From: an uncultured Gammaproteobacteria bacterium
GTDB taxonomy: Bacteria; Patescibacteriota; Patescibacteriia; Patescibacteriales; UBA12465
Direction: 5' to 3'
Length of the DNA stretch: 64,000 nt
NCBI GenBank assembly: GCA_964500975.1
Contig: CAZCQW010000004.1
Span: 9,816-73,815, forward strand
The first letter of the stretch is position 1. The number at the start of each line of letters is the position of its first letter. Positions 2,210 through 44,602 of this stretch are shown in pieces. The position numbers and the translations under genes were made by a program. Under the pieces are notes generated by a model, which was not told the origin of the DNA, did no database searches, and saw nothing but the letters and a program-made list of their open reading frames with translations.

Positions 2210-2216
2210 TAAATTT

Positions 2217-2939
2217 ATGGCAAAGGCTTTAATCGAATTAACTAATATTGAGAAAACTTATGTTAGTGGTGATTTAGAGACACAGGTTTTAAAAGATATA
2301 AGCTTTGATATTAAAGAAGGTGAGTTTGTTTCGATTATGGGCCCATCCGGCTCGGGTAAGTCGACCCTGATGCATATTCTTGGCTTACTTGAAAGGCAAA
2401 GTGTTGGCTCATATTTTTTTGCTGGCCGTGATATTAGTAAATTAAGTGATGAAGAACTGGCTCATTTAAGAAATAAAGAAATTGGTTTTGTTTTTCAAGC
2501 CTTTAATTTATTGGCTCGAACTAGTGTTTTAGATAACGTTAAGCTACCTCTAATATATTCCGATAATAAACTTAAAATGGATGAAAGAGCTGCTAAAGTT
2601 TTGCGTAGCGTTGGTTTAGAACATCGTCTTAATTATTTTACGAATCAAATTTCCGGTGGTGAAAAGCAAAGAGTTGCCATCGCCCGTGCCTTAGTAAATA
2701 ATCCATCAGTTATTTTTGCCGATGAACCAACTGGTAATCTTGATTCAAAATCAGGTGTGCAGGTAATGGAAATTCTTCAAAAACTTAATGCCGAAGGAAA
2801 AACTATTATCTTAGTTACTCATGAAACATATACCGCTGAACATGCTCAAAGAATAATTCGTGTTCTTGATGGCAAAATCGTTGCCGATGAACTCGTTAAA
2901 CATAGACGGTTTGCGTCTGATGGCGAAAATTTAAAATAA
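2217..2939 (+). CDS. ABC transporter ATP-binding protein of the MacB/LolD family.
   Basis: Walker [13 protein letters not shown] signature [15 protein letters not shown], and Walker [13 protein letters not shown]. The ATG at 2217 is preferred over the TTG at 2181 that the ORF track uses. Confidence 0.85.
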
Positions 2940-2941
2940 TT

Positions 2942-4189: not shown

Positions 4190-4192
4190 ATT

Positions 4193-12877: not shown

Positions 12878-13615
12878 ATGAACAAATCACAAATCTTTCT
12901 AGCTACTTTAGTTAGTCTAGCAGTGACTGCGATCGTTATTGTGGCCCTTGTTATGGCTAATAAAACTAATAATCTAGAACGTTTTTCTGTAAACGGATCC
13001 GGTACTGTTTACGCTAAAGCGGACATTGCTAATCTTGAAGTTGGTTTAAAAACTGGTGCGAAAAAAACAGCTGCCGAGGCAACTGTTGATAGTACTAATA
13101 AAATGAATAGCATTATTGCTGAGTTAAAAAAATTAGGGATTGAAGACAAGGATATTAAAACTTCAAACTATAATTTAAATCCAGTTTATAATTATACGCA
13201 AGATAAGGGTCAAGAATTAGTTGGTTATGAGGTTAACCAAAATGTAACTTTGAAAATTAGAGATTTAAGTAAAATTGGCGATGTAATTGCCAAGACAACT
13301 GAAAAGGGCGCTAATCAAGTCGGTAATGTTAGTTTTACAATTGACGATGAATTTGCTTTAAAAAACCAAGCTCGTGAATTAGCTATTAAAAAAGCTAAAG
13401 AAAAAGCTGAGTTAATTGCTAGTCAATCAGGTTTGAAATTAGGTGAACTAAAAGGTGTGTATGAAAACGCAGATCAAGGCATGCCAATTATGATGAGTTA
13501 TACTAATGCAAAAATGGAATCAGATGCTATGGGAGGCGGTATTGCTTCGCCAAGTATTCAATCAGGACAGAACGAAATTAAAGTCGATGTTACTTTAACC
13601 TACGAAGTAAAATAA
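12878..13615 (+). CDS. SIMPL-domain (DUF541) protein, a periplasmic or secreted 26-kDa-antigen-like protein.
   Basis: N-terminal TM anchor, and the core ...FSVNGSGTVYAKADIANLEVGL... A paralog lies at 21272..22021. Confidence 0.7.
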   Translation: MNKSQIFLATLVSLAVTAIVIVALVMANKTNNLERFSVNGSGTVYAKADIANLEVGLKTGAKKTAAEATVDSTNKMNSIIAELKKLGIEDKDIKTSNYNLNPVYNYTQDKGQELVGYEVNQNVTLKIRDLSKIGDVIAKTTEKGANQVGNVSFTIDDEFALKNQARELAIKKAKEKAELIASQSGLKLGELKGVYENADQGMPIMMSYTNAKMESDAMGGGIASPSIQSGQNEIKVDVTLTYEVK

Positions 13616-14434: not shown

Positions 14435-15952
14435 ATGGAAACAAACAGAAAGAATAATCAGGTTCCAAAAAAACCAACTTCGGAAACGTTTAAAGAACTA
14501 ACAGGAAAGAATATTTCAGTAGTTGATACGAACATCTTGATTGAAGACCCTGGATCAATAATTGAGCTTCGTAAAGGCGGCAATTTACTTGTTATTCCTT
14601 TAGTGGATATTCACGAGCTTGATAAGCTTAAGAATGATCCTCGCATTGGTCACGAAGTTCGTGAAGCAATTCGCGAAATAAATATTTTACAGGAAGCCGA
14701 AGAACCTACCTTGATTATTGAATCAGGGATGAATTTTTCCGGCTTGAATTTTGATAGGAGTAAACCTGATCATCAAATCATTGCAACGCTTAACTATATT
14801 TATGATCACTTTTTAAAAGGTCATGATCCTTATAAAGGTTATGATAAGGTAAAAATGATTACGAATGATTTAGGCGTTAAGATATTGGCTCGTAGCATTA
14901 ATAAGAAACGACAGATCGTCGTTGAATCTTATAACAAAACACGAACCAAGATTGAAAAGAAAGATTTGGAAATTCCGATGATTGAAGTTCAGAAAGCAAT
15001 TGTTGCTGGAGATTGGAGAAAACATTTTACTTTTCCTGTTAATGGTTTAGGTAAAAAAATTCCCGACGGTTCACCGTTCATTGGATATTCCAATAAACGG
15101 AACGCTAAGAAGGGAGAATTTATTGCCATCAGACGTGGAGACGTTTTTGAAATTATTAATCCGGACATTGAAGCTTGTGGTATTAAGTCAAAAATGTCTA
15201 AAGAGGCTACTCGTCCTAATTGGGAACAGGCAGCCGCTTTATACTACGTCATGAACCCGGATTTTGATTGTGTTTTTCTTCAGGGTGGCGCCGGATCTGG
15301 CAAAACCTTGATATCAATGGCAGCCGCTTTAGCACAAAAAGGTCAAAATCAGTATAAAAAGATTATGATTTTCCGTGTCCCCGAACCGCTTGATCGTAAA
15401 AAAACACTTGGTTTATTACCTGGAGATGCGGGTGCTAAAATTGGTCTATATCTTCGTCCAATCGCGCAAGCTTTGGTTAAATTGATTAAGAATAGTCGGT
15501 CCCTAATGAAAATTGAAAGGGAGGAGCTTGAACTAACTCCTGAGCTAAAAAATGTTGGAAAAAAGAAAAATATTCAGCAACCAGCTCAACAACAAAAAAA
15601 GCCGACGAATCTGGAAGTTCATGCCGATGAAATATTTGAAAAGTATGGTATTGAAATTGCCATCCTTGAATATATCCGTGGCGAAAATCTTGATGAAGCC
15701 TTTATCCTTGTTGATGACGCGCAAAATTTATCCCTTCACGAAATGAAGAGTATGTTGACGCGTGTTGGTGAAAATTCAAAAATAATTTTTACCGGTGACT
15801 TAAATCAGATTGATAGTCCTTATCTTGATCAGAACTCGGCTGGTTTAGCTCATGCTATAAAGAAGATGGGTAGTGATCCAAGAATTGCTGTTGTTACGAT
15901 GACTCAGACTCTGCGAAGTCGAGTTGCTTCTATAGCCGAAAATTCTCTTTAA
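14435..15952 (+). CDS. PhoH2-like protein: an N-terminal PIN domain fused to a PhoH-type P-loop ATPase.
   Basis: PIN residues (VVDTNILIED), and a Walker A motif (QGGAGSGKTLISMA). It also contains an internal low-complexity insertion (KKKNIQQPAQQQKKP). Confidence 0.8.
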   Translation: METNRKNNQVPKKPTSETFKELTGKNISVVDTNILIEDPGSIIELRKGGNLLVIPLVDIHELDKLKNDPRIGHEVREAIREINILQEAEEPTLIIESGMNFSGLNFDRSKPDHQIIATLNYIYDHFLKGHDPYKGYDKVKMITNDLGVKILARSINKKRQIVVESYNKTRTKIEKKDLEIPMIEVQKAIVAGDWRKHFTFPVNGLGKKIPDGSPFIGYSNKRNAKKGEFIAIRRGDVFEIINPDIEACGIKSKMSKEATRPNWEQAAALYYVMNPDFDCVFLQGGAGSGKTLISMAAALAQKGQNQYKKIMIFRVPEPLDRKKTLGLLPGDAGAKIGLYLRPIAQALVKLIKNSRSLMKIEREELELTPELKNVGKKKNIQQPAQQQKKPTNLEVHADEIFEKYGIEIAILEYIRGENLDEAFILVDDAQNLSLHEMKSMLTRVGENSKIIFTGDLNQIDSPYLDQNSAGLAHAIKKMGSDPRIAVVTMTQTLRSRVASIAENSL

Positions 15953-21271: not shown

Positions 21272-22021
21272 ATGTTAGAGTGGAAATCACCAAAAGTTTT
21301 TATCATAATTCTTGCTATGATTCTTTTTTCAGGAATCGTTGGATTATCTATTGTTCGCGATAGACTTGTTAATCAACAATTTAAAACAGTAACCGTTAAT
21401 GGTCAGGGCAAGGTTTTATACGTTCCTGATTTAGCTATTGTTACCCTAGGTGTTCAAATCGATAAAGTCGCTAAGCCGGAAGAAGCTTTGGGTCAATTAA
21501 ATGGCAAGGTGACTGGAATTGTTAAGGTTTTAAAAGATCTTGGAATTCCTGAATCAGATATTCAGACTCAAAATTATTCACTTCTACCTCAATACGATAT
21601 CAATAAGGATGGCGTGTCGGCTGTTTCTGGCTATAATGCTAATCAACAGTTGGTTGTAAAGATTGTTGACTACGATAAAGATCCTGGTAAATTAGGTTCT
21701 GTTATCGCTTCGGCTTCTAAGGCTGGTGCAAATCAAATTAATAGTTTAAATTTTGATTCTTCAAAAATCAACGACTTAAAACAGCAAGCTAGAGTTTTAG
21801 CAATAAGCGATGCTAAAAATAAAAGTAACGCACTAGCAAGTTCTGCTGGAGTTGAATTGAAAGAGATTACGGGGTGGTATGAGAATCTTATTAGTCCAGT
21901 TCCTTACTATGGCGCCTATAATCAGGGCGGTATGGGTGGCGGTCAAATGTCTATTCCTGGCGTTCCAATTAGTAATCGTGAGGTAGTAATAGAGATAGGC
22001 GTAACATATAATATTAAATAA
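21272..22021 (+). CDS. SIMPL-domain (DUF541) protein, a paralog of 12878..13615.
   Basis: N-terminal TM anchor, and the core ...VTVNGQGKVLYVPDLAIVTLGV.... Confidence 0.7.
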   Translation: MLEWKSPKVFIIILAMILFSGIVGLSIVRDRLVNQQFKTVTVNGQGKVLYVPDLAIVTLGVQIDKVAKPEEALGQLNGKVTGIVKVLKDLGIPESDIQTQNYSLLPQYDINKDGVSAVSGYNANQQLVVKIVDYDKDPGKLGSVIASASKAGANQINSLNFDSSKINDLKQQARVLAISDAKNKSNALASSAGVELKEITGWYENLISPVPYYGAYNQGGMGGGQMSIPGVPISNREVVIEIGVTYNIK

Positions 22022-22026
22022 ATACT

Positions 22027-24495
22027 ATGAATGGGAATGGAAATTCTGATATTAGCCGTAATCCCTTAGTTGGCAAAACGGTTTTAATAGTTAATAGTAC
22101 TGGCGCGAGTGATCCACTGCACTCAAAAAAGCTCTTTATTAAAAAAGTGAAGAATTTGGGAGTGAAAATAATTATTTTAAGTAAGGAGGCGAGTAGTTTT
22201 CAGCCTTATGTTGATTATTCCGTTTCAGCTGACACCGCTAACTATCCCGAGGCGATGGGTGCGCTTGATAAGTTTTTGAGCAATAATCCCGGAATTAAGA
22301 TGTCGGGTGTAATTACTTTTTTAGAAGACGATGTTCTCCTTACCGCTAAAATAGCTGATAAATATCATTTAATTAATACTCCATATAAAGTCGCGGCTCA
22401 GATTAGAAATAAATTTTCTTTTCGTGAATTTTGTGCGGCCAATAACTTGCCAACTCTTAAGTTTAGAGCTTTAAAAAACCCTAAAGATTTAGAAGAAGTA
22501 GTTAAACTATTTAATTTCCCCTTAGTTGTTAAACCGGCCTATGGTGCGGCTAGTGCTTTTGTAGTTAAAGTAAATAACGAAGAAGAGCTTAGAGAAAGCT
22601 ATGATTATATTAAGAAGAATATTTCACCTAAAGTTGAATCCGCCCTTGCTGATGGATTAGAAGTTTTTGTTGAAGAATATATTGATGGTGATGAGGTTGA
22701 TTTAGATATCTTAGTTCAAAATGGAAAGATTAAATTTTGTGCAATTAGTGATAACGGTAAAACCAAAGAGCCTTTCTTTATTGAAACGACACGCATGACC
22801 CCGTCTAGTTTGCCGGAAAAGCATCAAGCTGCTTTAAGCGTTATGGCTGATGAAACTTTAGAGAAATTAGGTGTTTTAAATGGTTGTATTCACTTTGAAG
22901 CTAAGTTAGCAGCAAATGGTCCTATCCCTCTAGAGATTAATTTACGTCTGGGTGGGGATGAAGTTTATCCTAGCGTGAAAGCTGCTTGGCATGTTGATTT
23001 AGTTGAGAACATGGTTAAAATCGCCTGCGGAGTCTATATTCCTAAATTTGAATTTCCCGCTGGTCCTTATGAATACTTAGCAGCTGAAACATTCTCCTCT
23101 GATTATTCCGGTATTATTGTTAATCTTGATATTGATGAAGATTTAAAACGTCGCCCTTTTGTTAAAGAGTTTGAGTTTGAAAAGAAAATTGGTGACTCAG
23201 TTTTATGTCCACCAGATGGTTATGAGTATTTAGGCTGGGTATTAGTATCGGGAAATAATCCCCTTGATGCTCAGGACAATTTACGTGAAGCGGAAAAAGC
23301 AATTTATTACGAAGTGGCTAAATTTCATCCCGCTTCTTCAATTGGTAAAACAACTCGTCGTTCTCCATTTTCAGCTTCGGCAATTAATGTTGATATTTTA
23401 AAACGGCGTTCAAAGATTGAAAAAATTCGTCAAATGGCAATTTCTAACCAAAGAAATTTACATGTTGGTATTGCTTGTAATATGTACGAAGAATCGGGCG
23501 ATGATCAAGAAACGGTGGTTGAAAAGGATTTAACCGTTATTGGGGTTGATATTGAGAAAACTTTACGTGAACGCGGGTATAAAGTTAGCTTTTTTGATTT
23601 TAATGATGTTAGTAAAGCTTTTAATGATTTAAAAAATAGTGACGTTGATTTAGTTTTTAATGTTTGTGAACGTATTAATAACTCAAGTTTATTAGAGCCT
23701 CATGTCGCCTCTATTTTAGATACCTTACAGATTCCGTATACCGGCTCTAACCCTTTTACGCTTGGTTTATGCATTGATAAGATTCGGGTTAAAAAATTAT
23801 TAAGTTATCATAAAATACCGACCCCGGAATGGGATTATGTTTATTCTTTAGACGACGATATTCGCGATGATTTAAAATATCCTTTAATTGTTAAGCCAGC
23901 TAACACGGATAATTCTATTGGTATCACTAATGATTCTGTTGTTAGAAATAAAGAGGAATTGAATCGTCAATTAGAAGTAGTTTTAAAACAAATTGGTCGC
24001 CCAGCTTTAATTGAAGAATATATTGATGGTGATGAGTATGATGTGCCAATTATTGGTTCCGAAGAAGATGATTTACGTATTTTGCCACTCGCTCGTTCAA
24101 CTTTTGATAATTTACCGTCTAATTTGTGGCATATTTATCCTTTTGAGGCTAAATATACTGATGGCGGTGAATATAATAAAATTGTTGTTCAACGTCCGCC
24201 AAAAAATATTGGTAAAAAATTAGAACAACTTTTGGGAGAAATTGCGCTTGATACCTATAATATTTTAGATTGTCATGATTACGGTCGTATTGAAATTAGA
24301 GTAGATAAAAATAATAATCCTTACGTTTTAGAATTAAACCCGAATCCATCTCTTGATGCCGAGGGAACTTTTTCTGCTTCTGCTGAAGTTATCGGTATGG
24401 ATTACGGCGATTTCTTAGAAGAAATTATTCGCTTAGCAATTAAGCGTTATAAAGATAATCCTCCTTATTACCATCTCCAAGCTAACGTAATGTAA
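22027..24495 (+). CDS. Tandem ATP-grasp ligase, 822 aa. The N-terminal module is a carboxylate-amine ligase type, and the C-terminal module resembles D-Ala-D-Ala ligase.
   Basis: Two complete ATP-grasp signatures: FPLVVKPAYGAASAFVVKV...EEYIDGDEVDLDIL in the first, and YPLIVKPANTDNSIGITND...EEYIDGDEYDVPIIG...LELNPNPSL in the second. A 4-nt gap separates it from the next gene, implying an operon. Confidence 0.65.
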   Translation: MNGNGNSDISRNPLVGKTVLIVNSTGASDPLHSKKLFIKKVKNLGVKIIILSKEASSFQPYVDYSVSADTANYPEAMGALDKFLSNNPGIKMSGVITFLEDDVLLTAKIADKYHLINTPYKVAAQIRNKFSFREFCAANNLPTLKFRALKNPKDLEEVVKLFNFPLVVKPAYGAASAFVVKVNNEEELRESYDYIKKNISPKVESALADGLEVFVEEYIDGDEVDLDILVQNGKIKFCAISDNGKTKEPFFIETTRMTPSSLPEKHQAALSVMADETLEKLGVLNGCIHFEAKLAANGPIPLEINLRLGGDEVYPSVKAAWHVDLVENMVKIACGVYIPKFEFPAGPYEYLAAETFSSDYSGIIVNLDIDEDLKRRPFVKEFEFEKKIGDSVLCPPDGYEYLGWVLVSGNNPLDAQDNLREAEKAIYYEVAKFHPASSIGKTTRRSPFSASAINVDILKRRSKIEKIRQMAISNQRNLHVGIACNMYEESGDDQETVVEKDLTVIGVDIEKTLRERGYKVSFFDFNDVSKAFNDLKNSDVDLVFNVCERINNSSLLEPHVASILDTLQIPYTGSNPFTLGLCIDKIRVKKLLSYHKIPTPEWDYVYSLDDDIRDDLKYPLIVKPANTDNSIGITNDSVVRNKEELNRQLEVVLKQIGRPALIEEYIDGDEYDVPIIGSEEDDLRILPLARSTFDNLPSNLWHIYPFEAKYTDGGEYNKIVVQRPPKNIGKKLEQLLGEIALDTYNILDCHDYGRIEIRVDKNNNPYVLELNPNPSLDAEGTFSASAEVIGMDYGDFLEEIIRLAIKRYKDNPPYYHLQANVM

Positions 24496-24498
24496 TTT

Positions 24499-25395
24499 AT
24501 GTTAAGTATTAGAGAGGTAAATGACTTAAAAAACGCCGAGAGTTTATGGCGTGCCTTGTCGCCAAGCAAAACCATTTTTGACGAATGGGATTTTCGTTAT
24601 TGTTTTTATAAATATGCACCACTACCACTAAAGTTTTTAGCCGCTTATGAGGGCGAAGAGTTGGTTGGTTTAATGCCACTACAGATTCATCCTAAACACG
24701 GCTTTGAATTTTTTGCCGAAGATCCTTGTGAAGAAAATCGGCCATTTATTAAAGATGGTTATGAGAAAATTATTCCCGATTTATATAAATCGATAACTGG
24801 GCCAGGGAAGGCTTATGATATTACCGGCGACGATGAGTTTACCACTAAGTTTGATTTAGAAGATTATAAGTATGTTTTACCTTTAAAAGATATAAAAAAA
24901 TTTGTCGATTTTCTTGAATCAAGATTAGATTCAAAAAGACGTCGAAGTTTGGCTAGGGAAATAGCTGTGGTTGAAGCTTATGGAGTTAAAGTTGAAATTG
25001 TTGTGCGTGAAGATTATTTAGATGTCCTTGAGTTACTATTCGGTTTTAATACTGGTAATTTTAAAGAAGAATCGTATTTATTGGAAAACGACAGAGCGCC
25101 GTGGCGAGATTTAATGTCTTTAGATTATTCTTGGCGAGTTATAGCCTTAAAAATAAAAGGTAAAATACAGGCGGTTTCTTTAAGTGTTTTGTATAATAAT
25201 GAATGGCATTATTTAATTACAGGTACGAGTTTTAAAGATTTTCCAGGTTTAGGGAAGTTGCTAGTTAAAATTAATATAGAACATGCAATTGAAAGTAAGG
25301 CTGAATTTTTTGACGCGGGTCTCGGTGATTGTGGCTGGAAACATCTTTGGCATTTTGATAAAATATCACAATACTTATTTATTAAAGAAGAATAA
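24499..25395 (+). CDS. GNAT-fold protein of the FemAB/BioF2-like acetyltransferase type (Acetyltransf_6-like).
   Basis: 298 aa. Fold assignment is by pattern only and is weak. It is co-operonic with the ATP-grasp and SET genes. Confidence 0.35.
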   Translation: MLSIREVNDLKNAESLWRALSPSKTIFDEWDFRYCFYKYAPLPLKFLAAYEGEELVGLMPLQIHPKHGFEFFAEDPCEENRPFIKDGYEKIIPDLYKSITGPGKAYDITGDDEFTTKFDLEDYKYVLPLKDIKKFVDFLESRLDSKRRRSLAREIAVVEAYGVKVEIVVREDYLDVLELLFGFNTGNFKEESYLLENDRAPWRDLMSLDYSWRVIALKIKGKIQAVSLSVLYNNEWHYLITGTSFKDFPGLGKLLVKINIEHAIESKAEFFDAGLGDCGWKHLWHFDKISQYLFIKEE

Positions 25396-25404
25396 ATTAA
25401 TCTT

Positions 25405-26148
25405 ATGTTTTTATTATCTCCTGATTATTACCAAATTAAATCCGTTCATAAAAAAGGCCGTGGCGTCTTTGCGAAAAAAGAAATTCCGGCCGGAACTATT
25501 CTTGGTGATTACGTTGGCCTTCTTGTTAAAGATGAAAAAATTGATGCTTTAGAAAAGAAGTATGGCGCATGTTATGCAATGGATTATTGTGATAATGGTT
25601 TATCAATTTTACCAGTTGATATTAAAGCGACTGGTATTCATTTAATTAATCATTCTTGTGCGCCTAATAGTGATACATATTATTACTTTGGTCATACATT
25701 ATTTTTTACTCTGCGTAAGATTTTAGTAGGCGAAGAAATTACCATTGATTATGGTTTTGATCCTGATAATGAGGGGCAAAGAGATTTGCTTCATACTTGT
25801 TTTTGTGGATCATTACTTTGTCGCGGCACAATGTATACAAGCGACGAACGTCTAAGACGTTATGGAAAATTCTGTCGCGCCCAAACCAAGAATCAAAAAT
25901 TTAAAATTTTAAGTGCTGGAGAAATTTTACCACCGCTTGAAAAATATCCTAAAGAAATAAAAGATAATAAGGTGTTTAATTTATTTGCAAATAATCATGT
26001 CGCTCCAGTCATTTTAGATGATAAAAAAATTTCTAGCGTCATAGAACTCCGAAAGAAAATCAGAGAAACGGGGAAGGCTTTAAAGTTTATAAATATAGGA
26101 TTAAAAGTTATTGCAATTGACGACGGTAGAATAATTGCCGATAAATAG
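25405..26148 (+). CDS. SET-domain protein, a putative protein-lysine N-methyltransferase.
   Basis: SET signature motifs: GRGVFAKKEIPAGTILGDYVG, NHSCAPN, EEITIDYG, and a post-SET Cys cluster CFCGSLLCRG. Confidence 0.75.
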   Translation: MFLLSPDYYQIKSVHKKGRGVFAKKEIPAGTILGDYVGLLVKDEKIDALEKKYGACYAMDYCDNGLSILPVDIKATGIHLINHSCAPNSDTYYYFGHTLFFTLRKILVGEEITIDYGFDPDNEGQRDLLHTCFCGSLLCRGTMYTSDERLRRYGKFCRAQTKNQKFKILSAGEILPPLEKYPKEIKDNKVFNLFANNHVAPVILDDKKISSVIELRKKIRETGKALKFINIGLKVIAIDDGRIIADK

Positions 26149-26382
26149 TTGCCCTGTGCAAAAAACCCCTTGTATTATTGGCATTATATTTTAGGTGTGC
26201 TATAATATCCTTATAAACATTGAAGTTTAAAAAACGACCTGTTGAAAACCCCGATAAATACAGCTTGAATTTCAACGGTCCATTAAGAAATTGTTAATTA
26301 ATTTTAATAACAATCATTTATAAATGGACACCTAGTATTAATTTCTTTATGAGATTATTGCTGGGAGCCCCATGCAAAAATT

Positions 26383-26664
26383 ATGTCAAAAATGACTAAA
26401 TCACAAATGATTGCTAATTTATCCGAAGCAACTGGTCTAAGCAAAAAAGACACAGCTGGATTCATGGAAAAGTTAGCAGACGTAGTTTACAAAGAAGTTA
26501 AAAAAGCTGGTGAATGTATCGTTCCTGGTTTTGGTAAATTAGTAAAGGTTAAGAGAAAGGCACGTGAAGGCAGAAATCCTGCAACAGGTGCAACTATCAA
26601 GATCCCAGCTAAGACGGTTGTAAAATTCCGTCTAGCCAAAGCTGTAAAAGATACAGTTCTATAG
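26383..26664 (+). CDS. hup: HU/IHF-family nucleoid-associated DNA-binding protein.
   Basis: 93 aa. Signature motifs GFGKLVKVKRKAREGRNPATG and IPAKTVVKFR. Confidence 0.9.
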   Translation: MSKMTKSQMIANLSEATGLSKKDTAGFMEKLADVVYKEVKKAGECIVPGFGKLVKVKRKAREGRNPATGATIKIPAKTVVKFRLAKAVKDTVL

Positions 26665-26702
26665 TATTTTGAATAGTTCGAAATTAGTTTCTCAAATATA
26701 AA

Positions 26703-26734
26703 GGCCATCCCGTCGGAATCCGGGATGGTTTTTT
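26703..26734 (+). terminator. Rho-independent terminator after hup.
   Basis: ccatcccg-tcggaat-cgggatgg hairpin followed by a T6 run. Confidence 0.8.
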
Positions 26735-26801: not shown

Positions 26802-27026
26802 ATGGAAAACATAATTGCCTTGAAGGAGTTAAGACTTAATATGGAAAAATACGCCAATGAAGTTAAGAGTGGAAAGTCATTTATCGTTCTAAAACAGAGT
26901 AAGCCTATTTTTAAGTTAAGTCCGGTTGAAGAATCTGGTGAAGACGAGCGTTGGGAAGAGGTAGTAAACTTCACCAAGATTAAAAAAGGTGGAGTTGATA
27001 TTGATTCCTTATTGGCTTCTTTGTAA
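26802..27026 (+). CDS. Type II antitoxin of the Phd/YefM family.
   Basis: 74 aa. Motif ...KSFIVLKQSKPIFKLSPVEE..., and the stop lies 8 nt before the start of the toxin gene. Confidence 0.55.
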   Translation: MENIIALKELRLNMEKYANEVKSGKSFIVLKQSKPIFKLSPVEESGEDERWEEVVNFTKIKKGGVDIDSLLASL

Positions 27027-27034
27027 TTTTTGAT

Positions 27035-27280
27035 ATGGACAAAATTGCCAAGGCCTTACAAAGTCTATCAAGCAAAGAACGTGAACTTATTAAAACTATT
27101 CTTCTGAAAATAAAGAGTGGGTTTTTAGACGGACTTGATGTTAAAAAATTAAAAAACTGTGAAGATATATATAGGGCTAGAAAGGGAAAGTTGAGGATTA
27201 TTTTTAAGCGAACTGATGATAAAAATATTTATATCTTAGCGATTGAACGACGATCGGATAATACATACGGTAAATATTAA
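27035..27280 (+). CDS. Type II toxin of the RelE/ParE family.
   Basis: 81 aa. Motif DVKKLKNCEDIYRARKGKLRIIFKRTDDKNIYILAIERRSDNTY, matching the RelE/ParE pattern ..KLKG...YR.R.G.YRIIy..d....I.il.i.hR...Y. Confidence 0.6.
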   Translation: MDKIAKALQSLSSKERELIKTILLKIKSGFLDGLDVKKLKNCEDIYRARKGKLRIIFKRTDDKNIYILAIERRSDNTYGKY

Positions 27281-29943: not shown

Positions 29944-32900
29944 ATGAATAAATTACGCAAGTTTTTAGTTATCGGCGTAATGGTACTTACAGTTTTCTCA
30001 GTTTTTGGTTCTATTGCTCCAGCAGGCGCTTCTGCATCTGCAGGTGATTTAATCAAAATGGCTGGTAATTCTTCTGTATATTACCTAGGTTCCGATGGCA
30101 AAAGATATGTATTCCCAAATGCTACTGTTTACATGTCTTGGTACAACGACTTCAGTGGCGTTGTAACAATCCCTGACTCAGAAATGTATACTTACCAATT
30201 AGGTGGTAACGTTGTTATGAGAGCAGGTACACAATTAGTTAAAATCACAACTGATCCTTCAGTTTACGCTGTTGAACCAAATGGCGTTTTAAGAAAGATC
30301 CAAAGTGAAGCACAAGCTGCAGCTTTATACGGCACCAACTGGAACAAGAGAGTTGTTGACGTAGCTGATTCTTACTTCACTAACTACACTATCGGCACTG
30401 CTTTGGCTAATGGTGCTACTCCAGCTGGTTCTTTAGTACAAAAGACTGGTGAAGCTGCTATCTATTACTATGATGGCACTAACTACCGTTCTATTGCTTC
30501 AGAAGCTGCTTTCAACGCAAACAGATTCAAATTCGCTAATGTATTATCAACAACAGCTACTTTAGCTGCTGGCGGTACTGCAATTGCTAATGCTGAATTA
30601 GTTAACGTTGCACAAAGTGGTGCTACAACTGGTGTTGTAGTAACTGGTTCTGGCTTAATGGTTTCATTAAGTGCTAATACTGCTGTTTCTAACTCTGTTA
30701 TTAACGGCCAAGCTTTAGCTGACTTAGCTTCTTTCAACTTCACAGCCGCTAATGATGGCGCTGTAACTGTTAAGGCTTTAAAGTTAAAGAGAATTGGTAT
30801 TTCTGCTGATGACTCAGTATCTAACGTTTATCTTTATGATGGCGTAACTAGATTAACTGACGGCGCTTCTTTCTCTAACGGTATGGTTTCTTTCTCAAGT
30901 GGTACTGGTCTTATGACTATTGCTGCTGGTCAAACAAAAACTATTACTGTTAAAGCTGACATCGCTTCAGCAACTGGTAATATTGGTGTAGCTATCAATG
31001 CTGCTTCTGATATTATGTCTACTGGCGCTGCTACAACAGGCGGTTTCCCATTAAATGGAAACTTAATGTCAATGACTAGTGCTACTGGCGTTTCAGCTGT
31101 TGCTTTCACTGATACTCTATCAGGTTCAACAGTTAAAGCTGGAAACATGAATACAATCGTTTGGTCTGAATCAGCTTCTGTTACAAACAAAGCTGTTGAC
31201 TTCAAATATATTGCTTTCAAACAAGTTGGTTCAATGAACGTTGATGACTTAGCAAACCTAAGTTTATATGTTGATGGTACTAAAGTTGCTACTTCTAACT
31301 TAGACAGTAACAACAGTGTTGCTTTCAGTTTAGCTACTCCAGTTAGATTGAATACAGGTAACCACACTATTGAAATGAAAGCTGATATCATTAAAGGTTC
31401 AAGCAGAACTTTTAGCTTCCGCATGGAAACTGCAGCTAATGCTGTTTTCACTGATACTAACTACAACATTAATGTAGCTCCTACTGGTGATTTCGCAGCT
31501 ATTAATGATTTCACAATTGGCGTTGGAACTTTAAGCGTTTCTTCTGATTCTACTTTCAGTGACACTCAAGTAGTAAAAACTGCTACTAACGTTACTTTAG
31601 GTAAATTTAAGATCAAAGCTTTTGGTGAAGATGTTAAGATCAATACTTTTGGCGTTGACGTTGTAACAGTTGGTACTTCTTCTGCTACTTCAACTGAAAA
31701 AGTTAACGATTTAGCTGTTGTTGTAAACGGCAGTCAAGTTGGTTCTTCTAAGTCTTTCACTATTGCTTCAAGCTCTCCAGCTGGTTCAAACAAGTCTAAT
31801 ACTCAATCTTTTGGTACTACTAACTTGTTTACTATTCCTGCTGGTACTGAAGTTATTGTTGAAATTAAGGGTTCTTTAGCTCTTGATTCCAATACAGTAA
31901 TGCAAAGCATTAAGGCTAACATCACTGGTATTACAGCACAAGGCTCAACATCATACTCTTCTGTAACTGGTGCTGCTGCAGCTTCTAACAATACTCTATC
32001 TATCGTTTCTGGTAGCATGACTGTTGCTAAGAATACCAACACACAAAACATGAATGTTTCCAAGAATTCCCAAAAGGTAAAGATTGGTTCATACATTGTT
32101 TCTGCTGGTTCAGCTGAAGGTGTAAATATCTCTAATGTTAGAATCAATGTTACTACTTCTGGTAGCCTTGATAACATCAGTAACCTATACATCAGCGAAA
32201 ATACATCACCAGTTAACCCTCAAGCTAATAACGACTTCAATACAAATTTGACAGTTGATAAGAGCCAGAGCAAGACCATTGATGTTTACGCTGACTTAGG
32301 CGACATTGCAAACAATGTTACTATTGATACTGCTTTAATTGCTACTTACAAGACTACTGTTACTCAAAGTTTTGGCACTTCAGCTTCAACTGCGGGTCAA
32401 CAAATGACTTTAAAGACAGCAACTTTAGCAACTCCAACTAATGTTTCTGATAGCCCAACATCTAATTTCGTATTAGGTGGTACTACCGCTACTGCAGCTA
32501 AATTAAAATTTGTTGCAACTGACGGTGCTGCTACTATTAACGAATTATATTTCACAGTAAACGCAACTAATACTCCTATTAGCCAAATTACTGTTGACGG
32601 TGTTACAGCTCCTGTTGTAGGAACTTCTGTTACTATGACTGGATTAAACACTGTTATCGCTGCTGGTTTACAGGGCGTTCAAGTTGAAGTAAAAGCTGCA
32701 TACAATAATGTTACTTCCGATGGTCAAGGTGGTGTTTCCACTGGCGCTTTATCGCACCTAACATTAACAGGTATGAAATATACTATTAATGGTACTCAAA
32801 CCACTTCTGGTACATTAGCTGTTACAACAAATGACATGAAGTTAGTATCTGCTTACCCAACAGTAGTTGACGCTTCTTCATATGGTACAAATCCAAACTT

Positions 32901-33315
32901 AGTACCAAGCGGTAAATCTGAAGTAATGAGATTCACTGTTGCCAACACTGGCAGCAACCCAGTTAACTTGAAACAAGTTAGCTTGAAACCTTACTTTGAT
33001 TACACTATTCCTGCTGCTACTAGTTCAATTAAGATTTACGATGCTAATGACTTAGCAACTAACTTAGCTACATCTACTGCTGTATTTACAACAAGTGGTG
33101 TTACTGCTAACGTTGCATTTGCTAATGACATTACTGTAAATGGAACACGTACTTTCGTTGTCTATGCTGACAATACAGGTACTGCTTCTACAACTGGTAA
33201 CTACTTCCGTATGGATATGGTTAATACTGGTTATTCTTGGAACGATTCTACAATCACAGGTTCTATCGATGGAACTTATGTTAAAGAATTCCAAGGTACA
33301 ACATTTAAGAAATAA
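29944..33315 (+). CDS. Giant secreted Thr/Ala/Ser/Gly/Val/Asn-rich protein with no Cys; a candidate S-layer or major surface protein.
   Basis: Signal peptide (MNKLRKFLVIGVMVLTVFSVFGSIAPAGASA). 1123 aa of low-complexity beta-rich sequence. Codon usage is strikingly biased toward gct, act, ggt, gtt and tct, unlike neighbouring genes. The gene has its own roughly 500-nt leader and a strong terminator. Confidence 0.6.
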   Translation: MNKLRKFLVIGVMVLTVFSVFGSIAPAGASASAGDLIKMAGNSSVYYLGSDGKRYVFPNATVYMSWYNDFSGVVTIPDSEMYTYQLGGNVVMRAGTQLVKITTDPSVYAVEPNGVLRKIQSEAQAAALYGTNWNKRVVDVADSYFTNYTIGTALANGATPAGSLVQKTGEAAIYYYDGTNYRSIASEAAFNANRFKFANVLSTTATLAAGGTAIANAELVNVAQSGATTGVVVTGSGLMVSLSANTAVSNSVINGQALADLASFNFTAANDGAVTVKALKLKRIGISADDSVSNVYLYDGVTRLTDGASFSNGMVSFSSGTGLMTIAAGQTKTITVKADIASATGNIGVAINAASDIMSTGAATTGGFPLNGNLMSMTSATGVSAVAFTDTLSGSTVKAGNMNTIVWSESASVTNKAVDFKYIAFKQVGSMNVDDLANLSLYVDGTKVATSNLDSNNSVAFSLATPVRLNTGNHTIEMKADIIKGSSRTFSFRMETAANAVFTDTNYNINVAPTGDFAAINDFTIGVGTLSVSSDSTFSDTQVVKTATNVTLGKFKIKAFGEDVKINTFGVDVVTVGTSSATSTEKVNDLAVVVNGSQVGSSKSFTIASSSPAGSNKSNTQSFGTTNLFTIPAGTEVIVEIKGSLALDSNTVMQSIKANITGITAQGSTSYSSVTGAAAASNNTLSIVSGSMTVAKNTNTQNMNVSKNSQKVKIGSYIVSAGSAEGVNISNVRINVTTSGSLDNISNLYISENTSPVNPQANNDFNTNLTVDKSQSKTIDVYADLGDIANNVTIDTALIATYKTTVTQSFGTSASTAGQQMTLKTATLATPTNVSDSPTSNFVLGGTTATAAKLKFVATDGAATINELYFTVNATNTPISQITVDGVTAPVVGTSVTMTGLNTVIAAGLQGVQVEVKAAYNNVTSDGQGGVSTGALSHLTLTGMKYTINGTQTTSGTLAVTTNDMKLVSAYPTVVDASSYGTNPNLVPSGKSEVMRFTVANTGSNPVNLKQVSLKPYFDYTIPAATSSIKIYDANDLATNLATSTAVFTTSGVTANVAFANDITVNGTRTFVVYADNTGTASTTGNYFRMDMVNTGYSWNDSTITGSIDGTYVKEFQGTTFKK

Positions 33316-39707: not shown

Positions 39708-40682
39708 ATGAAGATTATTAAAAAGCTTTTAGCTGGTCTTGTAAAATCCGTAAAAACTTTATTTGCGAGTAATAAATATATTCGGAGTAAGGCGGGTAAA
39801 TTAATTATATTTTCATGTTTTATGGTCCTGATTTGGCTTGGATATATTGCATTTTCTATGTTTAGTCTTAGTCCTTCTCAAATCGCCCTAGCTGAACTTG
39901 AGAAATCATATACAACAGAAAAAATATGTCATGAAGAATGCTATCTTTGGCGTCAAGGTAAGGAGTCGTTAATAGTTAGTAATTTAATTAATAAAAGATC
40001 AGACACAGAAAAAGAACTATATAAATACTGGATTTCAGAAAACACCGATTTAGATTTCAAGAAAGAAGTGGTCCGTTTAAATTTTTTAGCATATGGGAAA
40101 GGGGGTGTCCCTGAATATTTAAAAAGATATATCAATGACGAGAACTATGAGTCTAGCCTCGCCACGTTAATTATTTCATTATTTGACTTAGATCTTAGTG
40201 ATTTAACATCATTAGATTTTGCGCTCAATAATAAATTTAGTCTAGCGACTTCTAGCGCCGAAAAAATTGAAACACTAAAAGTGAAGGCGAGTTTAGGAAA
40301 TGACCTTGAAATTGATACGTATTTCTCGTTATTAAACACTAGTGGAGAAAATGACGTTAAAAGGGAGTTAATTAAAAATATTAGTTCAATTAGAGAGAAA
40401 AATAATTTTTATACTTTAAGTCAGCTAGAAATAATAAAAAGTATTATTCTTAACCCAGAAACAGATATTCGCGTACGCCAAGACTTAGTTTTATTAATTG
40501 GTGATTATTATTTAATCTATCCTGAAGAAAGCGCGACACTCTGGTTTGAAATATATAATAACGAAGCCCTTGATAATATTAGTCGATTATTTAGTGCGGA
40601 CAGTTTAAATCATTTAAAAAAATTAAATTTAAGCCTGCCTGAAGTTAGTGAGATAGATTGGGAAGCTTACTATAATCAATAA
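39708..40682 (+). CDS. Hypothetical N-terminally anchored protein, 324 aa.
   Basis: One TM helix; 5 nt upstream of the giant LTD/LamG gene, so probably co-transcribed. Confidence 0.4.
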   Translation: MKIIKKLLAGLVKSVKTLFASNKYIRSKAGKLIIFSCFMVLIWLGYIAFSMFSLSPSQIALAELEKSYTTEKICHEECYLWRQGKESLIVSNLINKRSDTEKELYKYWISENTDLDFKKEVVRLNFLAYGKGGVPEYLKRYINDENYESSLATLIISLFDLDLSDLTSLDFALNNKFSLATSSAEKIETLKVKASLGNDLEIDTYFSLLNTSGENDVKRELIKNISSIREKNNFYTLSQLEIIKSIILNPETDIRVRQDLVLLIGDYYLIYPEESATLWFEIYNNEALDNISRLFSADSLNHLKKLNLSLPEVSEIDWEAYYNQ

Positions 40683-40687
40683 AATTT

Positions 40688-43600
40688 ATGAAACAATTAA
40701 AAATAATTAAATTAATCTTTTCACTATTTTTTAGCATTTCACTCTTAATAATTAGTCCATCATTTTGCTTGGCGATGCCGCCGGGAGCCCTGCTTTATAG
40801 GACTTCTGGTGAAGGAAAAATGTTTGGCTATAGTAGCGACCCTCTAGTGTATTCCGAAAAAGCGATCGTAAAGAATATATATTCTGGACATGTTGGTATA
40901 TATATTGGTAAGGAAAATGGAGTGGACTATATTGTTGAGGCTTTGAGTAATGGAGTTGTTAAAACGCCGGCTGATAAGTTTGTAAATTTAGCTGAGGGCG
41001 AGAAATATTTAGGTGCAAAAATTCCTAAAAACCTATCAAGTGTCCAGCAGGCCAAGGTTGTTGAAATTGCTAAAAGTTTAGTTGGGAAAAACTTGGCTTA
41101 TGATTATGATTTTAAAAATCAAAAAGGGCCAAATAGTGGTGATTGGACCTGCGTGGGCTTGGCTGAAAAGTTATATGAAAGCGCAAATATATCTAATCCC
41201 AATAATTTACAATCGCTTGAGTATGATAAAAATTATTATGCTATAAATATTACGCCCGATGGTTTTGATAATTATACTAAAGTAAATGATTACGGCGATT
41301 GTTTCTCGCCAAATTTTGAATTCTCGAAATTTGGAAGACGAACAGATATTTTAATTCCTGCGCCTGAAATAATAGGCTTTAATCTTGGTTTAGAAAAAGA
41401 AGGTGAGCGATATATATTTTTGCCATATACTCAATATTTGCAGCCGACTTTAAATAATGTTCAGACTGATATAAAAATTTCTTCTTCATTTTCAGGTTCT
41501 GAAGTACGTGGTGCGGTCAATACCAGCGCCTTAGTTTTGCGTTGGAGTCTAGTTAATAATCCTGTTTCATCGGTCAAGATGATTGCAAATAAAGTCGCTG
41601 ATGTTTTTGTGAGTTTAAAGGATAGTATTTTCGGTGGCGGCAGTGAGCTCACTAAGGTTGTTCTAACCGACGCCTTAGAAGACGTGAGTCCTGAAACAGT
41701 AGCCGCAATTAAGGTTGGTGCAATGGTAAATAAAGCTATAAAAGAAAAAGTAGCATCAGCTAAATCAACGGCCACTAAAACAACTAGCGTCAATTCGGCT
41801 GGTAATTCTAAGGGAGTAACGATTAATACCAATAAGCAAAACAGTGCGCTTGTAAATAAAGCAGACTCAAGTAGTAAGGTCGATGTTCTAAAAATTGATA
41901 ACTCTAAAACTAATAATACTAAAACTGACAATACAAAAAATGACACAGTTAAAGCCGCAGCGACGAATAAATCAACTTCAAGCACTACTACTTATTATAA
42001 CCCTTCTAAAACCGCCACGAAGGCCGCCACAAGCTCTCAAGCAGCAAATAGCGGTTCCAGAGCGGGCGCTAGTAGCTCTTGGAGCAGTTCCGGCTCAAGT
42101 TCTTCGGGTGGAAATAGTACTAACGATAACTCTCCTAAAATAGCAACGATTAATAAAATATACAGTACCGGAAATAATGATTTTATAGAGTTATATAATC
42201 CTGGTGAAAAAGACTTTGATTTAAATACGGCTGGATATCGTTTAGAAAAAGCCAAAACCGCTGAAGATCCAAGTTTAATGATTAGAATTGGTGATACTGA
42301 TGACGCGTCGTATCCAGGCGGAACAATTATTAAAGCAAAAAAGACATATTTAATTGTTAGCAATAAAGCTAGTCTATATTGGCAATCAAAAGCAGATGCT
42401 GTTGTTAATCGTGAAGAGTTTACTTGGCCGGACTCAGGATACACAATTTACTTAGGTACGGGCGCAATTAGTTCTAGTAAGGATGTTGATATTCTTGAGG
42501 CGATCGGTTTTGGTTTAGACGCTACATATTTTCAAGGAGAATCTCCAGCCGCAGAGATAAAAAATTATTACATATTAAATCGAGTAAAAAGCTCAAATAA
42601 TAATAAAGTTGATTTTAATTTAATCAAATCAGACGACCCAAGTATTGATTGGTCGTCTTTAGTTTCCGCCAGCAGTACGGATAAAATCGCTAGCTCTAGT
42701 GATGAAGTTGCTAGCTCTAGTGATGAAGTGTCGACTGCTACTTCTAATCTACCAAGTTCTACGCCGCTAATTTTAATTAATAAAATTTATAGCACTGGAA
42801 ATAATGATTGGCTTGAATTATTTAATTTCAGCGATTTCGATTTTGATTTGGCGAGTAATACCTACCGTCTAGAAAAATCTAAAACTGCACTGGACCCCGC
42901 ATTAATTATGAGGATAGGAGATGCGACTGATGGACTATATCCTGGCGGAACAATAATAAAAAGTAAAAGTAGATACTTAATTGTCTCAAGCGAAGCTAAT
43001 GACTTCTATAAATCACAGGCTCAGGCGATTGCCACTAGAACTGACTTTTCATGGTTTAATTCCGGCTATTCTATATATTTAGGAAATGCCCCCATTAGTT
43101 CGAATACTGATAATAATATTGTAGACTTGGTTGGTTTTGGTGCCGATGCTAGTCGCTTTAGTGGATATGCGCCTGCAAGCGAGATTACTGATAACTATAT
43201 TTTAAATAGAATAGGAACGAGTTCGAATAATAATTTGGATTTTAATTTAATTAAGTCTAGTGACCCAAATATTAATTGGAGCGCACCAAGCCCTGAAGAC
43301 GAAAATATAAATGAGATATATAGTTTTTCCGCTTCTTCTTATAATTTGTTTCCAGCGCCTAATCCTATAAATTCAGAAGGATTAACTTATCTCTGGCATT
43401 TTGATGAATGCTTTGGCTCTGAGGCAAGAAGCTTTGTTGGGTCATCAACTTTAAGCGTTGGTGATTATTGGCTTCCAGGAAAGTTTGCCTGCGCTAAAGA
43501 GAATTCTTATAACAAGGGAGTTAGTGGTGGGGTGTTAGAAGATGAGCTTGATATTAATAATTTTTCAATTAGTTTTTGGTTTAAAAGTTCTGGCAGTTTT

Positions 43601-44602
43601 CCGCGACTTAGCTTATCTATGAGAAATAATAGTGAAGAAGCTATTAATGTGACCCTAGAACCAGGTTTAATGCAGTTTAGTGGATTATCCTCACCCGATT
43701 GGCGCGCTTATGACCCAAGTTTTTCTTTTGATAATACTTGGCGTCAGGCAACCTTAGTTGTTAATCGAAACGAGGGTTACTGGTCCTTATATATTGATGG
43801 AATAGTTAAATATCATGTTAATACTTATAAACTATTGTCGAAAATTAATTACTTAGAATTTGGTGGTGATAACAGTGCTTACGCGCTCGATGAGGTTGCG
43901 GTTTGGGATAGAGCGTTGTCTGAAAATGAAATAGCTAGTATTAGGACCCAAGAACAAGTAAATAATCCAGCACCACTATATATTCCTCAACAAAAAGCTG
44001 TTTTAAAGCACTTCTGGAATTTTAACGAGGGAATAGGTACATCAAGCATTGATTTAATTGGAGATTTGAAAATGAATATTCTCCCTACTAATTGGCTGAG
44101 TACAAGTTTGACTAATAGTGTTCTGGCTAGTGCCTGGAGGGATAGATTTAATTTAAATTTGCCGACTATAAATTCTAGAGATTTATCTTTGACACTTTGG
44201 TGGCGTTCTCCGAAAATGGATGAGGAGGGGAGAGTTAAAATTTCATTAGGTAATGAAGTTAAGCCTAATTTATTTAGTTTAATGGCTAGCTATTATATTT
44301 CATCTTATAATTTTAGTAATAATTCTGGGTATTTTAGTTTTGGTGAAAATTTAACCATTCCACATGATTTAAATTGGCATCATTTAGCGATGGTTTACGA
44401 TTCGTATAGAAATGAATTAAATTACTATGTTGACGGGGAATTGAGTCGTCAGGAACATTTTCTTTGGTCAGCTGATAACTCCATTATTAACTCCTTGGAG
44501 ATATTGCCGGAAAATTGGGGAACAGAAATTGATGATTTAGGTATTTGGCAGGGAGCTTTAAGTCCTGCTCAAATACGGGAAATATTTGCTAATAATAAAT
44601 AA
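40688..44602 (+). CDS. Giant secreted multidomain protein of 1304 aa: a permuted-papain-like (YiiX/C92-like) N-terminal domain, a Ser/Thr-rich linker, two lamin-tail (LTD) domains and two LamG domains.
   Basis: Signal peptide. N-terminal domain motifs GHVGIYIG and WTCVGLAEKLYE. Duplicated LTD modules (INKIYSTGNNDFIELYNPGEKDFDL and INKIYSTGNNDWLELFNFSDFDFDL). Duplicated LamG modules (LDEVAVWDRALSENEI and IDDLGIWQGALSPAQI). A 21-bp tandem repeat at 42689..42730. Confidence 0.6.
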   Translation: MKQLKIIKLIFSLFFSISLLIISPSFCLAMPPGALLYRTSGEGKMFGYSSDPLVYSEKAIVKNIYSGHVGIYIGKENGVDYIVEALSNGVVKTPADKFVNLAEGEKYLGAKIPKNLSSVQQAKVVEIAKSLVGKNLAYDYDFKNQKGPNSGDWTCVGLAEKLYESANISNPNNLQSLEYDKNYYAINITPDGFDNYTKVNDYGDCFSPNFEFSKFGRRTDILIPAPEIIGFNLGLEKEGERYIFLPYTQYLQPTLNNVQTDIKISSSFSGSEVRGAVNTSALVLRWSLVNNPVSSVKMIANKVADVFVSLKDSIFGGGSELTKVVLTDALEDVSPETVAAIKVGAMVNKAIKEKVASAKSTATKTTSVNSAGNSKGVTINTNKQNSALVNKADSSSKVDVLKIDNSKTNNTKTDNTKNDTVKAAATNKSTSSTTTYYNPSKTATKAATSSQAANSGSRAGASSSWSSSGSSSSGGNSTNDNSPKIATINKIYSTGNNDFIELYNPGEKDFDLNTAGYRLEKAKTAEDPSLMIRIGDTDDASYPGGTIIKAKKTYLIVSNKASLYWQSKADAVVNREEFTWPDSGYTIYLGTGAISSSKDVDILEAIGFGLDATYFQGESPAAEIKNYYILNRVKSSNNNKVDFNLIKSDDPSIDWSSLVSASSTDKIASSSDEVASSSDEVSTATSNLPSSTPLILINKIYSTGNNDWLELFNFSDFDFDLASNTYRLEKSKTALDPALIMRIGDATDGLYPGGTIIKSKSRYLIVSSEANDFYKSQAQAIATRTDFSWFNSGYSIYLGNAPISSNTDNNIVDLVGFGADASRFSGYAPASEITDNYILNRIGTSSNNNLDFNLIKSSDPNINWSAPSPEDENINEIYSFSASSYNLFPAPNPINSEGLTYLWHFDECFGSEARSFVGSSTLSVGDYWLPGKFACAKENSYNKGVSGGVLEDELDINNFSISFWFKSSGSFPRLSLSMRNNSEEAINVTLEPGLMQFSGLSSPDWRAYDPSFSFDNTWRQATLVVNRNEGYWSLYIDGIVKYHVNTYKLLSKINYLEFGGDNSAYALDEVAVWDRALSENEIASIRTQEQVNNPAPLYIPQQKAVLKHFWNFNEGIGTSSIDLIGDLKMNILPTNWLSTSLTNSVLASAWRDRFNLNLPTINSRDLSLTLWWRSPKMDEEGRVKISLGNEVKPNLFSLMASYYISSYNFSNNSGYFSFGENLTIPHDLNWHHLAMVYDSYRNELNYYVDGELSRQEHFLWSADNSIINSLEILPENWGTEIDDLGIWQGALSPAQIREIFANNK

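Follow-up and report, generated by a model that had tools for sequence, protein, structure and literature searches.

A SET-domain protein with a family-specific basic C-terminal domain encoded in a Patescibacteria genome

Results

A complete SET-domain gene

We analysed a 64,000-nucleotide stretch of contig CAZCQW010000004.1 (assembly GCA_964500975.1), hereafter called the window. The ATG-started open reading frame (ORF) at 25405..26148 (+ strand, stop included) is a complete gene for a 247-residue protein composed of a SET domain, a post-SET motif and a C-terminal domain, as judged from Pfam, homologues and a structural model. The SET core comprises residues 1-123 (25405..25773) and was delimited by the Pfam match at residues 18-117, by alignment with MLL1 and MLL2, by invariant columns and by Foldseek. 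Within the core lie the GxG S-adenosylmethionine (SAM)-binding motif G18-R19-G20 (25456-25464), which is part of GRGVFA (residues 18-23), a D35-Y36-x-G38 motif (residues 35-38), a short i-SET insert with a helix at residues 43-53 and invariant Y57, Y61 and P70, the sequence NHSCAPN (residues 82-88, 25648-25668), and EEITIDYG (residues 110-117, 25732-25755), in which Y116 would be the catalytic tyrosine by homology. The core is followed by the post-SET motif CxCxxxxC in the form CFCGSLLC (residues 132-139, 25798-25821), the cysteines of which (C132, C134 and C139) are invariant and align with the post-SET cysteines of KMT2A and KMT2B, and then by a family-specific basic C-terminal domain (CTD; residues 145-247, 25837..26145) that is delineated by the model, by invariant columns and by a profile search. 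An earlier note on this DNA had named GRGVFA, NHSCxPN, EEITIDYG and CxCxxxxC as hallmarks of a SET protein, and each of them is present in the translated ORF; the C-terminal extension, which the note put at about 90 residues, measures about 103. The N-terminus (M1, L3 and then the SET-N strand) shows no evident signal peptide and is kept from the first residue in an alignment of 43 sequences.

The Pfam SET profile (PF00856) matched the 247-residue protein over its entire length (1-105 of 105) with an E value of 4.1e-18 and 66.2 bits, the cut-off being 22.4. The only other Pfam match was to the related PRDM PR domain and lay below threshold; thus, the domain falls in PF00856, as the note had proposed, and in no other family above threshold. 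A phmmer search of all PDB chains returned the SET domain of KMT2B as the best match (E 4e-14), with KMT2A, KMT2B, KMT2C and SETD2 ranging from 4e-14 to 1e-11 (6e-12 for SETD2), and the alignments spanned residues 17 to 141, taking in the post-SET cysteines. The protein databases hold a sequence that is 100% identical (P0001), besides full-length homologues. Judged from the sequence, the motif set together with the SET match goes far beyond chance resemblance.

Conservation and predicted fold

To define the conserved positions, 43 homologues with 39-74% identity to the protein were aligned and the key columns counted. In the SET part, G18, G20, D35, G38, Y57, Y61, P70, N82, C85, H97, F101, R104, E110, E111, Y116, C132, C134 and C139 are invariant, so that the predicted catalytic tyrosine, the asparagine and cysteine of the NHSC sequence and all three post-SET cysteines are each found in 43 of 43 sequences; Y36, H83, S84 and N88 are conserved in 42 of 43. 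Because these residues are invariant or at least 95% conserved, the SAM-binding positions, the catalytic tyrosine, the four cysteines and the i-SET residues are strongly constrained. Neither of the two outcomes that the earlier note had named as speaking against a SET protein, a non-SET profile assignment and an unconserved tyrosine or NHSC sequence, was obtained. C85 is expected, by analogy, to form the post-SET zinc site together with C132, C134 and C139, and the invariant i-SET residues Y57, Y61 and P70 suggest one conserved substrate surface. Position 114 aligns with the Phe/Tyr switch of MLL1 (Y3942, the first Y of TYDY). In contrast to the Tyr of MLL1, the residue here is Ile, and the family has Ile in 23 sequences, Val in 12, Phe in six, Ala in two and never Tyr.

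An AlphaFold2 model of the full protein, built with the 43 homologues, had a mean predicted local distance difference test score (pLDDT) of 92 and a predicted template modelling score of 0.90. Foldseek matched the first ~146 residues of the model to MLL1, MLL2 and SETD2 (E 8e-11), and the superpositions gave TM scores of 0.66-0.72 normalised to the target, with root-mean-square deviations of 2.7-4.6 Å. In each respect that we checked, namely profile, fold, SAM-binding and catalytic residues and post-SET cysteines, the protein agrees with the SET-domain (class V) methyltransferases.

The C-terminal domain

The CTD has its own set of invariant residues (Y181, P182, R216, R220 and G223) and near-invariant ones (G172, L175, L178, D187 and P210). 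In the model, a helix (residues 147-161) is followed by a long, ordered loop, which contains the YP motif, and then by a beta-alpha-beta-beta-beta unit; pLDDT is above 90 both within the full-length model and when the domain was modelled alone. The family means for this domain are a net charge of +9.2 and an isoelectric point of 9.6, against -2.9 and 6.3 for the SET core. Pfam gave only sub-threshold noise for the CTD (DUF2726, E 0.027), and Foldseek found no fold match in the PDB at E<1. A CTD profile searched against 1.84 billion representative proteins had 117 matches, essentially all of them SET proteins of about 245 residues, matched at ~138-245, or short fragments. Apparent matches in four long proteins (P0171, P0178, P0222 and P0224) were rejected as spurious, since these are highly repetitive sequences whose scores accumulate from weak partial matches. 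The best 120 of 216 homologues all cover 96-100% of the query, which means that they have the whole architecture. The statement in the earlier note that the extension has no obvious homology is, therefore, correct with respect to Pfam families and PDB folds and incorrect with respect to the family itself, in all listed members of which the domain is conserved over its full length. The note had also suggested that the extension confers substrate specificity; this is plausible for a domain that is conserved, basic and family-specific.

Some Microgenomates-type members of the family have only 187-216 residues and lack the final ~50 residues of the CTD, which indicates that the extension is built of two parts, the helix with the YP loop and the terminal alpha/beta unit. 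Short forms altogether range from 187 to 238 residues (mostly 187-216) and come mostly from metagenome-assembled genomes (MAGs) of Curtiss-, Davies-, Roizman- and Gottesmanbacteria type; most of them retain the helix and the YP loop and drop the last ~50 residues (loci L049, L053, L055, L059, L061, L064-L069, L071-L073 and L075-L085 of the genome scan described below).

Distribution, paralogues and genomic setting

A search of 5.8 billion proteins for homologues yielded 216 clusters. The best 120 of them all have 238-276 residues and derive from Patescibacteria MAGs wherever a source is named. Several members already bear the NCBI name "SET domain-containing protein-lysine N-methyltransferase", and the presence of a SET gene in this genome is, therefore, no surprise. 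When one genome per species was scanned, we found 122 encoding loci, 80 of which were kept. The titles of the kept genomes include Falkow-, Levy-, Gribaldo-, Roizman-, Curtiss-, Davies-, Gottesman- and Jorgensenbacteria, Parcubacteria, Microgenomates and others, and two are titled Methylomirabilota and Desulfobacteraceae; many binchicken MAGs are titled "uncultured Gammaproteobacteria", apparently a placeholder. The closest genome copy (L007, 90% identical) is from a "Patescibacteria group bacterium". The family with SET domain and CTD is essentially confined to Patescibacteria, also known as the Candidate Phyla Radiation (CPR). The description of SET proteins as sporadic in bacteria, given in the earlier note, is an understatement for this phylum, where the family is widespread (216 clusters, 122 species-representative hits).

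A neighbour-joining tree separated the SET proteins into two groups, which are paralogous, the protein studied here belonging to group 1. One MAG (farmington ... bin.38) holds two loci, L034 and L052, with one copy from each major subfamily, which indicates that the paralogy is old; the paralogues of the two subfamilies possibly have different substrates. Another MAG, La2_metabat2.105, also holds two copies with the CTD (L020 and L027). A second, smaller SET gene, for a protein of 167-191 residues, lies directly upstream of the CTD-containing one in eight related genomes (L001:5494-5997, L008:4401-4973, L010:4779-5318, L011:4430-4975, L013:4466-4999, L015:4776-5351, L016:4770-5318 and L019:4426-4965) and is missing from the window; its product has NHSC, ELFxDY and CxCGxxxCRG motifs of its own and a differing tail. 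Minimal SET proteins without the post-SET motif occur at L006, L040 and L046.

The gene does not stand out from its surroundings. Its GC content is 0.328, compared with 0.346 for the window, and the GC content at third codon positions is 0.21, compared with 0.24 for the neighbours. The window is ordinary chromosome, with genes for ribonucleotide reductase, DnaE, RNase P RNA and tRNA-Leu, and nearly all of its genes lie on one strand. No phage homologue of the protein was found by tblastn, PHROGs gave only noise with no informative phage family, and PADLOC returned no defence-system match. Plasmid sequences searched with tblastn gave only small Burkholderiales and Leptospira SETs, with 26-34% identity over the core and E values down to 3e-10. 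Plasmid matches that seemed to reach residues 184-200 of the query were discarded on the basis of the annotated Caballeronia record (H1), in which the gene encodes a SET protein of 147 residues and the supposed extension arises because tblastn reads through the stop codon; several of the other plasmid matches end at query residue ~143-150, and one of the records (H2) carries no gene annotation. Both the spread over lineages and the composition of the gene argue for long residence of the family in the CPR.

The gene neighbourhood

The SET gene is the last in a string of four genes on the + strand that are separated by 5, 3 and 9 nucleotides. The string begins with a gene for a SIMPL (DUF541) protein (21272-22021), which is syntenic in L001 and L003 and has a paralogue at 12878-13615 (+) in the same 64-kb window. 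The second gene encodes a double ATP-grasp ligase of 822 residues (22027..24495; assigned by Pfam, NCBIfam and PDB), the N-terminal half of which is similar to the L-amino-acid ligase BL00235 (3vot, E 6e-27) and the C-terminal half to a D-Ala-D-Ala ligase (3r23, E 7e-26). The third encodes a FemAB-like GNAT protein of the Acetyltransf_6 family (298 residues, 24499..25395; PF13480, E 3e-8) and ends 9 nucleotides before the SET start codon. Downstream of SET, a putative promoter-like site on the + strand (26178..26206; TTGGCA-17-TATAAT with TG), the best in the region and identified by consensus match alone (11/12), precedes a gene for an HU-type DNA-binding protein of 93 residues (26383..26664, +; Bac_DNA_binding, E 8e-27), which starts 235 nucleotides downstream of SET and is followed by a terminator-like hairpin from the terminator scan (26700-26733). 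Because the putative promoter sits between the SET stop codon and the HU gene, SET is best regarded as closing the ATP-grasp unit and HU as belonging to a separate one.

Clustering of the neighbours at 86 SET loci did not reveal a universal operon partner for the CTD-containing SET genes. The ATP-grasp gene adjoins SET in at least 20 loci, in several arrangements, and GNAT-like homologues adjoin it in at least 17. Within group 1, the order ATP-grasp, GNAT-like, SET is found in the window, L003, L051 and L044; the order with a small SET inserted before the CTD-containing one is found in L001 and six other loci; and further layouts are ATP-grasp, SET, GNAT-like (L035), ATP-grasp, SET (L018), a divergent arrangement (L052) and occurrence in the same neighbourhood (L040). 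The linkage persists at SET identities down to 35% with otherwise unrelated flanks, and in group 1 it exceeds chance adjacency. In group 2 loci ATP-grasp is never near, and only local synteny is seen, involving RecQ, a treble-clef zinc-finger protein, YGGT, LapA and NUDIX. The HU gene lies downstream of SET in 19 loci, all from one collinear clade, and in none of the more distant loci.

The reciprocal examination gave a different picture. None of 80 metagenomic ATP-grasp loci carries a SET gene with the CTD, in agreement with a six-frame search, and a small SET was seen in only two distinct loci of the 80, about the chance expectation. We therefore downgraded the operon hypothesis in its strong form. 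The regular partners of the ATP-grasp gene are a protein of 452-457 residues with an SFGKDS sequence (PP-loop-like, without a Pfam match), an MR_MLE epimerase and the GNAT-like gene. Moreover, the ATP-grasp proteins are much more conserved than the SET proteins (92% identity versus 64%, and 88% versus 44%). The ATP-grasp fusion of 805-822 residues is, as an observation in its own right, 77-97% identical in CPR genomes in which SET is 46-90% identical, and it also occurs at L035:2532-4955, L052:2367-4796(-) and L087-L166. The fusion and its partners look like an undescribed peptide-building module that is possibly related to the cell wall.

Other features of the window are recorded here for completeness. 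A pair of small ORFs (26802-27026 and 27035-27280, +) with weak similarity to Phd/YefM (E 0.006) and ParE (E 0.004) sits between HU and a conserved helix-turn-helix gene; because the syntenic loci L001 and L003 lack the pair, a toxin-antitoxin module has probably been inserted here. ORFs on the + strand without a significant Pfam match lie at 29944-33315 (1123 residues), 39708-40682 (324), 50476-51831 (451) and 58600-60276 (558), and a surface-type protein of 1304 residues with Lamin-tail and Laminin_G_3 domains is encoded at 40688-44602. A PIN-PhoH fusion of 505 residues (14435-15952, +), with GreA upstream on the opposite strand, is ordinary CPR housekeeping.

Discussion

Proposed function and substrate

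The conserved SAM-binding, catalytic and predicted zinc-ligand positions make it quite likely that the protein is an active protein-lysine methyltransferase, and it is most likely cytoplasmic. By homology, SAM would be bound in a pocket formed by the GxG motif (G18-G20), N82-H83 and the post-SET zinc cluster (C85/C132/C134/C139), while the substrate lysine would enter a channel whose walls are formed by Y36, Y116 and the post-SET segment, where its epsilon-amine would be methylated. Because the switch position is Ile here and Ile, Val, Phe or Ala throughout the family, never Tyr, more than one methyl transfer should be allowed, and by analogy with MLL1 the enzyme probably has the capacity for di- or trimethylation. 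The basic CTD would most likely offer a surface on which the substrate, or a polyanionic partner, docks.

With regard to the substrate, we favour, with some reserve, an endogenous protein. It would probably be a nucleic-acid-associated one, such as an HU-type nucleoid protein, a ribosomal protein or a translation protein, given the basic CTD, the invariant i-SET residues and the precedent of cpnSET with Hc1 and Go1-SET with MC1-alpha. Prokaryotic SET proteins are known to methylate their own chromatin proteins, as in these two cases (PMC3980110). HU itself is a doubtful candidate for the specific substrate; the idea is one of analogy, since the linkage is limited to one clade and the HU gene has a promoter-like site of its own.

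Several further considerations weigh against this reading. The role given to the CTD is purely deduced, with no fold match in the PDB behind it. The gene context does not name a substrate, because no neighbour is conserved family-wide. The switch argument leans on the analogy with MLL1 and on one pairwise alignment. Finally, our literature search on CPR SET proteins found no paper mentioning the family.

Alternative explanations

One alternative hypothesis is that SET closes the ATP-grasp/FemAB-like operon functionally as well as physically, and that its substrate is a lysine-type amine of the peptide that those enzymes make or modify; the target might be a peptidoglycan-stem-like or other small peptide, a modified protein, or the enzymes themselves. 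The intergenic gaps of 5, 3 and 9 nucleotides and the position of the best promoter-like site after SET are in keeping with this, as are the varied orders and orientations in which ATP-grasp adjoins group 1 SET genes at identities down to 35%, the small SET paralogues inside the ATP-grasp operons L040, L142 and L145, and the established action of both FemAB-type and SET enzymes on the epsilon-amine of lysine. We nevertheless think that the hypothesis is unlikely, because the link is one-sided (0 of 80 ATP-grasp loci with a CTD-containing SET, and two with a small SET, which is about chance), because the steady partners of ATP-grasp are the PP-loop-like protein, the MR_MLE epimerase and the GNAT-like protein, and because group 2 is never near it. 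The far stronger conservation of ATP-grasp than of SET argues against tight co-evolution, and we know of no SET enzyme that methylates a non-protein substrate. A broader form of the idea would be that the CPR SETs, both the CTD-containing subfamily and the small paralogues, are accessory tailoring enzymes that N-methylate a lysine-type amine for a peptide-building module consisting of the fused L-amino-acid-ligase/Ddl-type ATP-grasp protein and the FemAB-like transferase and, elsewhere, the PP-loop-like protein and a dipeptide-type epimerase. The target would then be a cell-wall-related or other non-ribosomal peptide, or a ligase-modified protein. If this were true, a SET enzyme would for the first time be linked to the chemistry of peptides or the cell envelope instead of to chromatin or translation proteins; we consider it a distinctly unlikely proposal.

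Two other explanations bear on the destination and the origin of the protein. It might be an exported effector like NUE, RomA/LegAS4 or BaSET that methylates proteins of the host cell of the CPR bacterium. Episymbiosis is common in CPR bacteria, in favour of such a role; that most of their known hosts belong to the bacteria or archaea and not to the eukaryotes counts against it. Several of the bacterial SET proteins that have been characterised act as secreted effectors (PMC3980110), and the NCBIfam equivalog for the Dot/Icm effector AnkI/LegAS4 (NF043024) gives a weak local match in the SAM-binding stretch of the protein; this match scores 22.2 bits against a cut-off of 550 and covers residues 16-60 only, and the protein is not of the LegAS4 type. 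An effector role appears very unlikely in view of the conserved SET fold that begins at Met1 with no signal peptide evident, the lack of ankyrin repeats, and an annotated gene content free of secretion systems for ~10 kb to each side, with only an HlyD-family membrane-fusion protein and a MacB/FtsX-type permease ~20 kb upstream (272-5419). The stable spread over many CPR lineages and the conserved substrate surface also fit a housekeeping target better than an effector in an arms race.

We give least credence to recent horizontal acquisition from a eukaryote or mobile element, or to a decaying, inactive SET-like pseudoenzyme. Among solved structures, the nearest are those of eukaryotic enzymes (KMT2 and SETD2), as a recent transfer might predict. 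The eukaryotic SETs are about as distant from the protein (27-31% identity) as those of Burkholderiales and Leptospira (26-34%), and there is, therefore, no pointer to recent eukaryotic transfer. The neighbour-like composition, the chromosomal surroundings without phage or defence matches, and the full-length orthologues in at least nine named CPR lineages with two old paralogous subfamilies all argue against it, while the invariance of all catalytic residues argues against a pseudoenzyme. The earlier note had left the choice between horizontal transfer and vertical inheritance to be decided; composition and distribution disfavour a recent transfer, and it is to recent transfer only that this answer extends.

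Significance

Bacterial SET-domain lysine methyltransferases have been known for two decades, and annotation pipelines already label this family; the core finding, therefore, adds no new biology. What distinguishes the family is the CPR-restricted basic CTD, the existence of two old paralogous groups and a linkage, seen from the SET side only, to an unusual ATP-grasp operon. CPR bacteria have kept one to three SET genes despite the very small size of their genomes. Identification of the substrate, whether HU, a ribosomal protein or a target linked to the ATP-grasp and FemAB-like proteins, would show whether lysine methylation constitutes a regulatory layer in minimal uncultivated cells. Because it is small and confidently modelled (pLDDT 92), the protein may be tractable for expression and substrate screening.

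Comparison with known SET systems

The secreted SET nucleomodulins NUE of Chlamydia, RomA/LegAS4 of Legionella and BaSET of Bacillus share with the protein a SET catalytic domain in a host-associated bacterium; unlike them, it has no secretion signal, ankyrin repeats or nuclear localisation signal. A further parallel in kind is offered by cpnSET of Chlamydia pneumoniae, which acts on Hc1 and Hc2, and Go1-SET of Methanosarcina, which acts on MC1-alpha, both small stand-alone SETs of organisms that have no nucleosomes, which methylate lysines of basic nucleoid proteins (PMC3980110). In the window, an HU gene lies 235 nucleotides downstream of SET, a linkage confined to one collinear clade. As far as we know, cpnSET and Go1-SET do not have the CTD. 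The small SETs of Burkholderiales and Leptospira have the same core, at 26-34% identity, and the same automatic annotation name; the CTD is not common to the Caballeronia protein, which at 147 residues stops after the SET core.

The best sequence and fold matches are to the KMT2 (MLL/SET1) and SETD2/NSD enzymes, with 27-31% identity over residues ~14-145 and with the GxG, YxG, NHSCxPN and ELxxDY motifs and the CxCxxxxC zinc motif in common. In contrast to these enzymes, the protein has no N-SET/WRAD-binding region, AWS or pre-SET and begins at the SET-N strand, and Pfam finds no other domain in it; because the flanking modules are absent, it falls outside the KMT2 and SET2/NSD families. It differs from them, too, in being encoded by a bacterium without histones and in carrying, after a shared catalytic core, a basic CTD of about 103 residues.

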